A DNA stretch of 64,000 nucleotides. Origin: Dictyostelium discoideum (lineage: Eukaryota). Under the pieces are notes generated by a model, which saw only the letters and a program-made list of their open reading frames with translations, had not been told where the DNA came from and ran no database searches. Positions 35,859-48,789 of this stretch are shown in pieces. The stretch spans positions 3,264,001 to 3,328,000 of the forward strand of contig CM000155.2 of NCBI GenBank assembly GCA_000004695.1, written 5' to 3'. Each line of letters begins with the position of its first letter. The stretch's first letter is position 1. A program made the translations under genes and the position numbers.

Positions 35859-35949
35859 TGCTCCATGCGAGGATCGAACTCGCGACCAAAGCATTGCTTT
35901 ATCATACTGATATATAAGTACTTCACTCTACCGACTGAGTTAATAGAGC
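35859..35949 (-). tRNA. tRNA-Ile (anticodon UAU) with an 18-nt intron, 91 nt
   Basis: The minus strand is identical to the plus-strand copy at 48699-48789. It reads GCTCTATTAACTCAGTCGGTAGAGTGAAGTACTTATA[TATCAGTATGATAAAGCA]ATGCTTTGGTCGCGAGTTCGATCCTCGCATGGAGCA. The acceptor stem is GCTCTAT/ATGGAGC. The anticodon stem is AAGTA/TGCTT and the loop CTTATAA gives anticodon TAT. The intron lies 3' of position 37. Confidence 0.65.
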
Positions 35950-36202
35950 ACACAATGATTTTTATTTTTAAATATTTAAAAAAATATATTGAATGGATTT
36001 TAAAATTTAATTTTAATTTTTACCAAATTTTAAAATGAAAATCTTATATAATCATTTAAATTTTCTGATAAAATGGAAATAAGGGTCCACAAGAATTTTG
36101 TTTTAGGATTAAGTACAAAAAATTTCATATTTTCTTAAAATTTTCATTTTTTTTTTTTTTTTTTTTTTTTATTCTTTACATTTTATCTGTGAATAATAAA
36201 AA

Positions 36203-36688
36203 ATGAAAAATGAAATAAAAAAAAGGGTTGAAGTGTCAGTGGGGATAATTGAAAATGATAAAAATGAAATTTTAATATGTAAAAGAAATAAAAAAGGTGA
36301 TCACCTTTATGGATTATTTGAATTTCCAGGTGGTAAAATTGAAAAGGATGAAACACCTATTGATTGTTTAATTCGTGAATTATATGAAGAAGTTGATATT
36401 ATTTTATCAACCTCAACAACCTCAACAGCAACAGCAACAACAACTCCTTCACCTTCAAATTTATCAAACCATAATTCAATGATTAAATTAATTGAAATTG
36501 TTGAATTTGAATTTAAAGAGATAATTTGTAATATTCATTTCTTTAAAGTTAATTTACAACAAAATATCAAACCGAAACCAAAAGAAAACCAGCCAATGTT
36601 TTGGATAAAAAAAACTGAATTAAATTATTTACAATTTCCAGAACCAAATAAAGATATAATTCAATTATTAAATCAAAATAAAATTTAA
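36203..36688 (+). CDS. Nudix hydrolase (MutT-like), 161 aa
   Basis: ATG at 36203. The Nudix box GGKIEKDETPIDCLIRELYEEVDI fits Gx5Ex7REUxEExGU. Confidence 0.75.
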   Translation: MKNEIKKRVEVSVGIIENDKNEILICKRNKKGDHLYGLFEFPGGKIEKDETPIDCLIRELYEEVDIILSTSTTSTATATTTPSPSNLSNHNSMIKLIEIVEFEFKEIICNIHFFKVNLQQNIKPKPKENQPMFWIKKTELNYLQFPEPNKDIIQLLNQNKI

Positions 36689-36771
36689 AACATTTATTTA
36701 CTTTTTTTTATTTATTATTCATTTATTTGTATTTATTTGTGTTTTTTATTTTTTTTTTTTTTATTTTTTAT

Positions 36772-46766: not shown

Positions 46767-46893
46767 AATAAACCAATAAAAAAAAAAAAAATAAAAAAAA
46801 AATAAATAAAAAAAATAAAAAAAATAAAAAAAATCAATGCATAATACAAATATATGTTTTGTAAAATTTTATAGTATTTAAATATACTATTTT

Positions 46894-48411
46894 TTAATTT
46901 TTAATTTTAAAAATTTTATTATAAAAATAATCAGCAGTAAAATTATTTAATAAATTAACATTACCAAAATGAATTATTAATTTATCTAATGATTTTGGTA
47001 AATTAATTTGATATAACTGATGAGAATATTTTGAATTTTTAATTTCTAATATTTTTAAAGAATTTGGAAGTACATCTTTACCAATTGGTTTATCAAATGT
47101 AATACCTAATTGTAATGATGTCAAAGTCGGTGGTAAATCAGCAGGTTTAATATACTGATTGAAATTATCCAATACCAATGATTCCAATGAGGTACAATCC
47201 AATGAATCCTTAATAATTGATAAATTATCATTAAAACCACCCAAATTTAAATGTTTTAATGATTTTGGTAATGTATTTATTGGAATCACATTTTTAAATT
47301 GTTTACCAAATTCTAAAGATACCAAATTCGTATGCAAGAATAAAGCAGACATCGAGGAAGTGGAAAGCGGTGGATTGAAATTATCACCAAATTTGAGGCA
47401 AGTCAATGACGAGGGTAGCATTGCGGCGGTCAAACTTTGGTTAAACTCCAATCCAAATTCTAAATTGGTTAAATTTGGTGGTAGTACACATAGCTGGAAA
47501 TCACCATTCAAAGGTTGATTAAACTTGCTTCCAAATTTAATGGAGCCAAGCGAGGCTGGTAAAGAGCCTGCTTTAATTTCACGATTAAAAATTTGATTAA
47601 ATTCAATTGTTTCAACATTGTGTGGTATGTAACCCTCTTTAATAATGGCATTAAATGTTGGACTAAAGCTTAAATTTATCGTTGAGATTGGTATTGGGAT
47701 ATTTAAATTCAAGCTTGCAATATAGTTCAAATCTTTCACTTTACTTGGAATTGAGCCTGGCACTATAACACCCTTATATTGGCTACTTAGATGTAAATTC
47801 TCCAATGTTTCAGGTAAAATATTTTTATTTATAGTTTGTTGAAATGAAATTCCAAATTTTAAAAATTTAATTTTACTTGGTAACCAACCACCATCTAATG
47901 ATTGATTAAATAATTCACCAAATTCTAAACTTGTGACTGAATCTAATAATTTAACATTATCCATAACTTCATTAAATTTATCATTGAAAATAATAGATTT
48001 AATTGAATATGGGAATATACTATTACTTTCTTGTTCTTTATCGTTATTTACTACTAGTAATTCTGATAATTTCATTGATGTTGGTGTTGGCGTTGGTGTT
48101 GGCGTTGGTGATGTTGGTGATGTTGGCGGTGTAGTGGTGGTGCCACTTTTATTTAATTCTTTTACAATTACATTATTTAGTTTTAAATCTGAATCTTCTT
48201 CATAATTTACAAATATTAAATTTTCAATATAACTTTTGTATTTATATGTTGAATATTGATCTATTGTCATTTTCATTGTGGTGTGAACATTAAATAATCT
48301 TGTGTGAAATAATATTTTATTTAAAATTATTTCATTCCTCCAACAATTAAAAAATAATTCACAATTACTATTACTTGTTGATGATGATGATGATGTTGTT
48401 GTTTTAATCAT
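46894..48411 (-). CDS. FNIP-repeat-containing protein, 505 aa
   Basis: ATG at 48411. It has multiple ~22-residue repeats with the F[NG]Q[SP]L...LP..L..L.FG consensus (EFGELFNQSLDGGWLPSKIKFLKFG, EFGLEFNQSLTAAMLPSSLTCLKFGDNFN...), typical of the Dictyostelium FNIP repeat family. Confidence 0.7.
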   Translation of the reverse strand: MIKTTTSSSSSTSNSNCELFFNCWRNEIILNKILFHTRLFNVHTTMKMTIDQYSTYKYKSYIENLIFVNYEEDSDLKLNNVIVKELNKSGTTTTPPTSPTSPTPTPTPTPTSMKLSELLVVNNDKEQESNSIFPYSIKSIIFNDKFNEVMDNVKLLDSVTSLEFGELFNQSLDGGWLPSKIKFLKFGISFQQTINKNILPETLENLHLSSQYKGVIVPGSIPSKVKDLNYIASLNLNIPIPISTINLSFSPTFNAIIKEGYIPHNVETIEFNQIFNREIKAGSLPASLGSIKFGSKFNQPLNGDFQLCVLPPNLTNLEFGLEFNQSLTAAMLPSSLTCLKFGDNFNPPLSTSSMSALFLHTNLVSLEFGKQFKNVIPINTLPKSLKHLNLGGFNDNLSIIKDSLDCTSLESLVLDNFNQYIKPADLPPTLTSLQLGITFDKPIGKDVLPNSLKILEIKNSKYSHQLYQINLPKSLDKLIIHFGNVNLLNNFTADYFYNKIFKIKN

Positions 48412-48698
48412 TTTGTAATATTAATTATTATTATTTATAAAATGAAGTTATCAAATTTGATTTTTGAAACATAAAAAAAAAAAAAATTTTTTTTTGTTTT
48501 TTTAGAAAAAAAATTTTTAAAAAAAAAATCTTTACTTGAATCAATTTCCAAGACATCCAATTTTTTTTTTAGAGTTTCCTTGTTACTATTTTTTAAAAAA
48601 AAATTTCAAAATTTGTTAGAATCTCTTTTTTGTTACAAAAAAAAATTAAAATTTATTATTACATATTTATTCATTTATTTTCATCAAAAAAATTGTGT

Positions 48699-48789
48699 GC
48701 TCTATTAACTCAGTCGGTAGAGTGAAGTACTTATATATCAGTATGATAAAGCAATGCTTTGGTCGCGAGTTCGATCCTCGCATGGAGCA
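48699..48789 (+). tRNA. tRNA-Ile (anticodon UAU) with an 18-nt intron, 91 nt; identical inverted copy of 35859..35949
   Basis: Same sequence and structure as the minus-strand copy. Confidence 0.65.

Follow-up and report, generated by a model that had tools for sequence, protein, structure and literature searches.

Does a pair of identical tRNA genes, set in opposite orientation around a few protein-coding genes, record a recent duplication, and can such a pair turn over the DNA between its members? The question is raised by a 64,000-nucleotide (nt) stretch of Dictyostelium discoideum AX4 chromosome 6 (hereafter the window; AT-rich, with a GC content of 22.9%), in which two intron-containing tRNA-Ile(UAU) genes, copy A on the minus strand and copy B on the plus strand, lie 12.7 kb apart (Table 1). 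The original prediction for this locus took the identity of the two genes as a hint of recent gene conversion or duplication, and proposed that the five genes between them (nudix, fucosyltransferase, USP, vps52 and a FNIP gene) could form an inversion-prone block. Pfam searches and gene calls confirmed these five genes, and the opposite orientation of the tRNA genes was likewise borne out. The comparison with related dictyostelids that had been proposed supports the inversion between species and speaks against a recent origin of the pair.

Orthologous loci were fetched through the fucosyltransferase and FNIP orthologs, which gave six assemblies besides AX4 (seven in total, from four named taxa): a second D. 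discoideum assembly, collinear with AX4 and 99.3-99.5% identical to it, D. cf. discoideum Z and Y, D. citrinum strains 1 and 2, and D. dimigraforme. Two overlapping loci, L008 and L007, covered D. citrinum strain 1. Synteny maps were built with blastn and repeat bounds were set by exact-match extension, as low-complexity A/T and AAT repeats swamped general repeat finding. Vps52, used as a synteny anchor, retrieved only distant dictyostelids (L003 and L004) with neither conserved synteny nor tRNA genes nearby, and a metagenome scan with the 5' half of the tRNA yielded zero matches.

Relative to both of its flanks, the 12.7-kb block from NUDIX to FNIP is inverted in D. citrinum. On L008 the histone, tRNA-Glu and CBM49 regions align to AX4 on the plus strand and the region from FNIP (48378) to the fucosyltransferase on the minus strand, with the orientation switching at a tRNA-Ile gene (9471-9561) inside one contiguous locus. 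On L007, also contiguous, the alignment is minus through NUDIX (36195) and then plus in the region of a gene for a 127-amino-acid (aa) protein (49929-50544), with the switch again at a tRNA-Ile gene (12491-12581). Strain 2 has the same arrangement (CBM49 - tRNA-Ile - FNIP ... GT10 - NUDIX). Each D. citrinum junction carries an intact, outward-facing tRNA-Ile gene, and zero genes are disrupted. The left junction, where NUDIX lies by copy A and CBM49, follows the AX4 order in 5/5 non-citrinum assemblies, while the right junction, with FNIP by copy B, is AX4-like in AX4 itself, the second D. discoideum assembly and D. cf. discoideum Y. Parsimony points to the AX4 order as the ancestral one, given that its left junction is also present in D. 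dimigraforme.

It could be asked whether this inversion is an assembly error at a repeat, or whether its ends fall beside tRNA genes through chance, given that there is one inversion event only and that the assemblies are unpublished-grade contigs. However, the two D. citrinum assemblies are independent (contigs of 415 kb and 4.56 Mb, the latter from strain 2) and agree, the orientation switches fall at tRNA genes within single loci (L008, L007 and L012), and a repeat of 104-150 nt is too short to mislead long-contig assembly. With ~3% of spacers holding a tRNA gene (~407 genes; PMC13063481), the chance that both ends would fall at random next to one and the same tRNA species, inverted, is, by rough estimate, well below 1e-3. 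Artefact or coincidence is thus a very improbable explanation.

The genes at these junctions are well supported as tRNA-Ile(UAU). Both copies score 52.5 bits against the Rfam model RF00005 (gathering score 29), and the covariance-model alignment places a 19-nt insertion past position 37, after ...CUUAUA, in each. Once nucleotides 38-55 are removed, the spliced tRNA of 73 nt takes a canonical cloverleaf as its minimum free energy fold, with a 7-bp acceptor stem, U33, the anticodon UAU (34-36), A37, the T-loop GTTCGATCC and the discriminator A73, and both genes carry internal A and B boxes. Introns of eukaryotic nuclear tRNAs sit at 37/38, and a conserved anticodon-intron pair between position 32 and intron position -3 sets the 3' splice site in a bulge; by inspection only, C32 lies opposite a G at intron position -3 in the canonical parse. 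Default ARAGORN called neither gene. When intron placement was left free, the program returned tRNA-Ala(UGC) with an intron at 34/35, and a call of another isotype is what the original prediction had named as refuting its model. Such a call was thus formally obtained, but it does not hold on identity elements or intron position: a G:U pair at 3:70 defines tRNA-Ala whereas pair 3:70 is U:A here, the intron would sit at 34/35 and not at 37/38, and it is the canonical parse that yields the C32-G(-3) pair. The Rfam score, the cloverleaf, the 37/38 intron and the C32-G pair together uphold the Ile(UAU) model. A published list of D. discoideum isoacceptors includes Ile(TAT) (PMC13063481), and the two copies are predicted to be functional RNA polymerase III (Pol III) genes that encode the minor, AUA-reading isoleucine tRNA.

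Copies A and B are identical at 91/91 nt including the 18-nt intron, as first described, and the identity extends a little beyond the genes to form a perfect inverted repeat of 104 nt. The earlier claim of a shared 5' flank is therefore correct in kind, but the flank measures 7 nt (ATTGTGT) and not 10, and is matched by 6 shared nt on the 3' side (ACTTTT, the start of the T-run terminator). Beyond -7 and +6 the 300-nt flanks in AX4 show no similarity above that of shuffled sequences, apart from an external B (ex-B) box. The tRNA genes are divergent, so that their 5' ends face the block while their 3' ends, terminators, ex-B boxes and downstream elements lie outside it; the NUDIX and FNIP genes are each divergent from the adjoining tRNA-Ile gene. 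An ex-B box, taken as the motif GTTCRANYC a few tens of nt 3' of the terminator, was found at each copy as anticipated, and also at +30 of a tRNA-Glu gene in the window; a putative one is kept at 11/11 tRNA-Ile copies across the genomes. Such boxes have been reported at 66-80% of D. discoideum tRNA genes (PMC3159450; PMC5911963), and those of copies A and B stand at the published distance for this species (PMC5006619, PMC5911963, PMC3159450). On the other side of the genes, a GATATT or TATATTTAA AT-rich motif was seen by eye ~25-38 nt 5' of most tRNA-Ile copies, in otherwise unalignable spacers, and could be an upstream TATA-like Pol III promoter element.

Sequence identity between the two copies is matched by identity between species. 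Ten of the 11 tRNA-Ile copies are 91/91 identical, i.e., copies A and B of AX4 and of the second D. discoideum assembly, copy A of D. cf. discoideum Z, Y and D. dimigraforme, the left and right copies of D. citrinum strain 1 and the left copy of strain 2, and the sole change is an A50T in the intron of copy B of D. cf. discoideum Y. Around these genes the coding DNA is 77-93% identical between genomes and most spacers are unalignable, those of D. citrinum to all others. In D. cf. discoideum Y and in D. citrinum the two copies lie in the same flanking contexts, and the pair is thus older than the split between D. discoideum, D. cf. discoideum and D. citrinum. As the two copies share their contexts in these taxa and 10 of 11 are invariant, the pair is best seen as old and its identity as the product of constraint; and since the 91 nt are invariant across taxa at the same positions, identity says nothing about recency. 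The same message comes genome-wide from the 407 tRNA genes of D. discoideum, which collapse to 75 distinct mature sequences (PMC13063481). Strong purifying selection, along with occasional gene conversion between the copies, would keep such a pair identical base for base.

A recent duplicate, or recent homogenization by gene conversion, as suggested in the original prediction, would also account for the identity in AX4. The 104-nt match does span the intron, the leader and the terminator, and copy-to-copy conversion is documented in D. cf. discoideum Y (see below). Yet none of the marks of a recent segmental duplication are present: no flank homology extends past -7 and +6 in AX4, both copies lie in the same contexts in Y and D. 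citrinum, and orthologs are themselves 91/91 identical, so that conservation alone suffices. The ATTGTGT leader, too, is found not only at both AX4 copies but at all three D. citrinum copies examined, and may simply be ancestral (both Y copies have TCATAT). Recent duplication is therefore largely refuted and a recent conversion in AX4 is unnecessary, which leaves a recent event an improbable source of the identity. Retroposition of a primary transcript was also considered, given that the identity runs from leader to terminator, and is disfavored by the ex-B boxes lying beyond the terminator in both copies and by the age of the pair.

D. dimigraforme has copy A and lacks a segment with FNIP, copy B, a pseudogene beyond it (see below) and the 127-aa gene (window 46850-51150 vs. 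L006 699-1355); past its Vps52, at a distance of 656 nt, comes the homolog of window 51186-51596. Two histories would produce this difference: a gain of copy B and its neighbors next to Vps52 in the discoideum/citrinum lineage, or their deletion in D. dimigraforme.

The two copies have also exchanged sequence. In D. cf. discoideum Y, copy B is preceded directly by ~130 nt of copy-A-type 5' flank (the Y copies align over 228 nt at 82% identity), and this proximal flank aligns to the NUDIX-side spacer of AX4 and matches a profile of A flanks from four genomes (E = 1.8e-6). Further 5' comes a B-type flank (ATTACATATTTATTCA...), and after it a truncated tRNA remnant that keeps nucleotides 1-17, with 2 mismatches. 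This scar is the footprint of repair or conversion that copied tRNA and flank from copy A into copy B, and the TCATAT leader of both Y copies is consistent with conversion in that direction. In D. citrinum, the one lineage that has the inversion, left and right copies resemble each other between -13 and +48, a span of 152 nt at 92% that takes in the ex-B box, and both ex-B boxes end in a derived ...TCTT where the other genomes have ...TCC; a conversion tract accompanying a crossover would yield an extended similarity of this kind.

Inverted and 12.7 kb apart, the copies form the arms of a short inverted repeat of 104 to ~230 nt depending on the genome (a perfect 104 nt in AX4; in D. citrinum 152 nt with 92% identity; in Y 228 nt with 82%). 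Recombination from arm to arm most likely flipped the five-gene block in the D. citrinum lineage, and would have left genes and tRNAs undamaged. We lean toward this account, i.e., an old, conserved Pol III gene pair whose inverted arms recombined and turned the block over in D. citrinum, with somewhat better than even confidence.

Several points weigh against it. Homologous recombination between the tRNA arms is favored rather than proven, and a crossover inside the repeat is inferred, because the breakpoints are placed no more finely than the tRNA-containing spacers (~0.25-0.45 kb); with D. citrinum spacers that do not align to those of the other taxa, the flank-swap signature of such a crossover (inner flanks exchanged, outer ones kept) was neither seen nor excluded. 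Attempts to classify the D. citrinum flanks as A- or B-type gave Smith-Waterman scores no higher than those of shuffles and no match by sensitive blastn or with an nhmmer profile. At 104 nt, the exact repeat is short for homologous recombination to be efficient. No inversion polymorphism was found within D. discoideum (two assemblies, and a third by locus-tag order only), and the evidence consists of a single inversion event at a locus picked for having the pair. Finally, retrotransposon activity at the same tRNA genes is an alternative source of DNA breaks.

Such activity is evident beside copy A. The predicted TRE3-type element was upheld by its reverse transcriptase (RT) domain, A22 tail (33592-33613), position and strand: the 2.2-kb element starts ~75 nt 3' of copy A and is oriented as the tRNA is, and AAAAAATATT is a candidate target-site duplication. 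Its RVT_1 match begins at profile position 37, the N-terminal ~390 residues are missing, and a C-terminal Cys/His motif was recognized by eye. The RT protein falls in a 79-member 90%-identity cluster from D. discoideum and D. citrinum, with members of up to ~1060 aa; in a full-length one (P0007, 1059 aa) Pfam detects the RT domain only. TRE3 inserts 40-150 bp 3' of tRNA genes, oriented as they are (PMC5911963), and ~61% of D. discoideum tRNA genes carry a TRE according to a published figure. The AX4 element resembles published TRE3 in lying within this window and orientation, in its RT domain and in its poly(A) tail (PMC5006619, PMC5911963, PMC3159450). Unlike a full TRE3, whose open reading frame (ORF) 2 combines endonuclease, RT and zinc finger, this copy has neither ORF1 nor an endonuclease domain. 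It is TRE3-type by position and RT and is assigned to no named subfamily from TRE3-A to TRE3-D. D. cf. discoideum, D. dimigraforme and D. citrinum strain 2 have no such element at the corresponding position, and the insertion at copy A in AX4 is thus specific to D. discoideum. D. citrinum strain 1 has, 3' of its left tRNA-Ile, a tandem pair of TRE3 3'-end fragments (~490 and ~1370 nt; L008 7246-9381); they are 95% identical to the AX4 element and differ from it in truncation points and insertion offset. Because offsets and truncations differ, and strain 2 has none, the left tRNA-Ile was hit independently and recently in separate lineages.

These independent insertions 3' of the left tRNA in AX4 and D. 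citrinum strain 1 indicate that breaks do occur there, and could be taken to mean that the block was flipped by end joining after breaks at the Pol III genes, or breaks made by the endonuclease of tRNA-targeted retrotransposons, in which case the identity of the tRNAs would be irrelevant. Such an origin fits breakpoints that are localized only to tRNA-containing spacers. It also fits the other tRNA-associated flips nearby (a tRNA-Glu flipped in two genomes and an inverted segment edged by tRNA-Ser in Y, neither with a visible inverted partner), and replication-fork stalling at tRNA genes is listed among causes of rearrangement in yeast (PMC2675101). On the other hand, the same tRNA species stands at both junctions, inverted as homologous recombination needs and with both genes intact, the Y scar shows homology-directed exchange between these very copies, and D. 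citrinum strain 2 is inverted yet has no TRE3. Fragility alone is therefore an unlikely explanation, and we retain recombination between the tRNA arms as the preferred one.

The neighboring tRNA-Glu(UUC) gene is 72/72 identical in every genome and always lies in the CBM49-histone spacer. AX4, Y and D. citrinum have it in one orientation, D. cf. discoideum Z and D. dimigraforme in the other; with flanks that cannot be aligned, this is either a micro-inversion or a loss and re-gain. On the other side of the block, window 54.6-61.66 kb holds small membrane-protein genes that form a paralogous cluster, and tRNA-Ser marks its edge. The homologous segment is inverted in D. cf. discoideum Y relative to AX4, with tRNA-Ser abutting the 51.0-kb end. 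D. citrinum has little of this cluster, and only ~0.8 kb separates its tRNA-Ser from the 50.5-kb end. This zone is thus a second region of rearrangement and gene gain bounded by a tRNA gene. Also in this part of the window, ~1.1 kb of AX4 (52376-53758) is missing from the second D. discoideum assembly (L002 5796-6060); the segment ends in a run of N (an assembly gap, ~53660-53757) and includes an ORF (52474-52935, 153 aa) whose product resembles, by eye, an ML/NPC2-type lipid-recognition domain.

The complex ~650-bp segment and (TAA)n tract beyond copy B, described at first as non-intergenic in appearance like the TRE3 on the other side, proved not to be mobile: they are a host membrane-protein pseudogene followed by (AAT)n. 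Over 79% of its length, the segment shares 49% identity with a hypothetical membrane protein (318 aa) from D. cf. discoideum. By tblastn its matches fall in frames +1 and +3 with in-frame stops, and the C-terminal transmembrane helix borne by P0005 is lost. Intact tandem paralogs, compared by blastn and tblastx, occur in L005, in a cluster with no tRNA genes, and the nucleotide alignment to one longer paralog extends into the first part of the (AAT)n run. A retro-copy or an insertion at a TRE3 site, suggested by a start at the offset of TRE3 and by the A-run that follows, was rejected in favor of a decayed paralog of a host gene.

Table 1. Location of the features discussed. Coordinates are those of the AX4 window unless a locus is given.
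Feature	Position	Strand	Basis or remark
AX4 genes across the window	DDB_G0293764 to DDB_G0293788		exact protein matches
tRNA-Ile(UAU) copy A	35859..35949	-	18-nt intron 35895-35912, 37/38 site; Rfam RF00005 52.5 bits
tRNA-Ile(UAU) copy B	48699..48789	+	18-nt intron 48736-48753; Rfam RF00005 52.5 bits
Left arm, perfect 104-nt inverted repeat	35853..35956	-	leader ATTGTGT + gene + ACTTTT
Right arm, perfect 104-nt inverted repeat	48692..48795	+	exact-match extension outward from gene
External B box, copy A	35820..35830	-	GGTTCGATTCC; +29 nt past gene; B-box scan
External B box, copy B	48820..48830	+	TGTTCGATTCC; +31 nt past gene; B-box scan
AX4 sites of GATATT/TATATTTAA motif	35950-35980; 48660-48698		
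Block inverted in D. citrinum, 12,749 nt	35950..48698	.	five genes; blastn synteny maps
NUDIX	36203-36688	+	Pfam, gene calls
GT10 fucosyltransferase	36772-38439	-	Pfam, gene calls
UCH/DUSP ubiquitin protease	~38990-42800	-	Pfam, gene calls
Vps52	~43700-46766	+	Pfam, gene calls
FNIP-repeat gene	46894-48411	-	Pfam, gene calls
Truncated tRNA-Ile remnant and B-type flank, D. cf. discoideum Y	L011 ~9412-9470		-197 to -139 of copy B
TRE3-type non-LTR (long terminal repeat) retrotransposon, 5'-truncated (DDB_G0293764)	33592..35784	-	Pfam RVT_1 E=1.4e-24
Pseudogene, Dictyostelium-specific membrane-protein family	48864..49650	+	P0005 residues 4-214; then (AAT)n tract
tRNA-Glu(UUC)	27634-27705	-	L009 18576-18647; L006 18954-19025; L010 18712-18783; L008 1714-1785; L012 3153-3224
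tRNA-Ser(UGA) zone	~51.0-61.7 kb, gene 61552-61633		L011 1-6825; L007 14346-14427

Identical tRNA pairs, ex-B boxes, TRE3 and the intron of tRNA-Ile(UAU) are each already described. The yeast tRNA-Ile(UAU) intron is ~60 nt long. The Dictyostelium gene is like that of yeast in its anticodon, in having its intron at the canonical 37/38 site and in that part of this intron can pair with the anticodon loop; unlike it, the intron is 18 nt, and intron-dependent modification is demonstrated for yeast and an analogy here. In yeast and other eukaryotes this intron is required for the Pus1-dependent pseudouridines 34 and 36 (PMC4090602; PMC10485636). By that analogy the Dictyostelium intron is probably needed for pseudouridylation of the anticodon as well, and its near-invariance across four taxa fits a functional constraint.

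The Dictyostelium genome paper is said to place ~20% of tRNA genes in same-anticodon groups, usually 100% identical and <20 kb apart, and the Ile pair is alike in all three respects. D. discoideum is known to have pairs and triplets of this kind (genome paper, cited through PMC8163159). As far as could be found, they are read there as recent duplications, with no link drawn to inversions. In contrast, the AX4 Ile pair predates a species split and brackets an inversion, and it illustrates that paired-tRNA identity, intron included, is no sign of recent duplication in this genome. A limited literature search found no report of tRNA-flanked inversions in dictyostelids. What is new here is a five-gene block flipped between sister species with an intact tRNA at each junction, and a scar of exchange between the two copies in one lineage. 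One may speculate, tentatively and with some doubt, that inverted same-anticodon pairs (said to include about one-fifth of D. discoideum tRNA genes) are a systematic source of small inversions, of local gains and losses of genes and of flipped orientations in dictyostelid genomes, and that the pairs persist as conversion between arms renews the recombination substrate. If so, the Ile locus would be one instance, and the flipped tRNA-Glu and the tRNA-Ser-bounded inversion would be further traces.

The closest parallel comes from yeasts. Inversions among the sensu stricto species were reportedly bounded by tRNA genes in opposite orientation, in many cases for the same isoacceptor (work of Kellis et al. 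in 2003). More broadly, tRNA genes show an enrichment of about three-fold at evolutionary breakpoints and where genes have been gained (Gordon, Byrne and Wolfe 2009, PMC2675101). As in Saccharomyces, the D. citrinum inversion separates sister species and ends at opposed tRNA genes of the same type, with tRNA-targeted retroelements and gene gain or loss adjoining. Unlike in yeasts, the organisms are Amoebozoa, and the repeats consist only of a tRNA gene with a few to ~130 nt, with no shared LTR or Ty-like repeat at both ends. The association of tRNA genes with inversions is thus extended from yeasts to Amoebozoa, and this locus provides a concrete, testable case for tRNA pairs driving structural evolution in gene-dense genomes.

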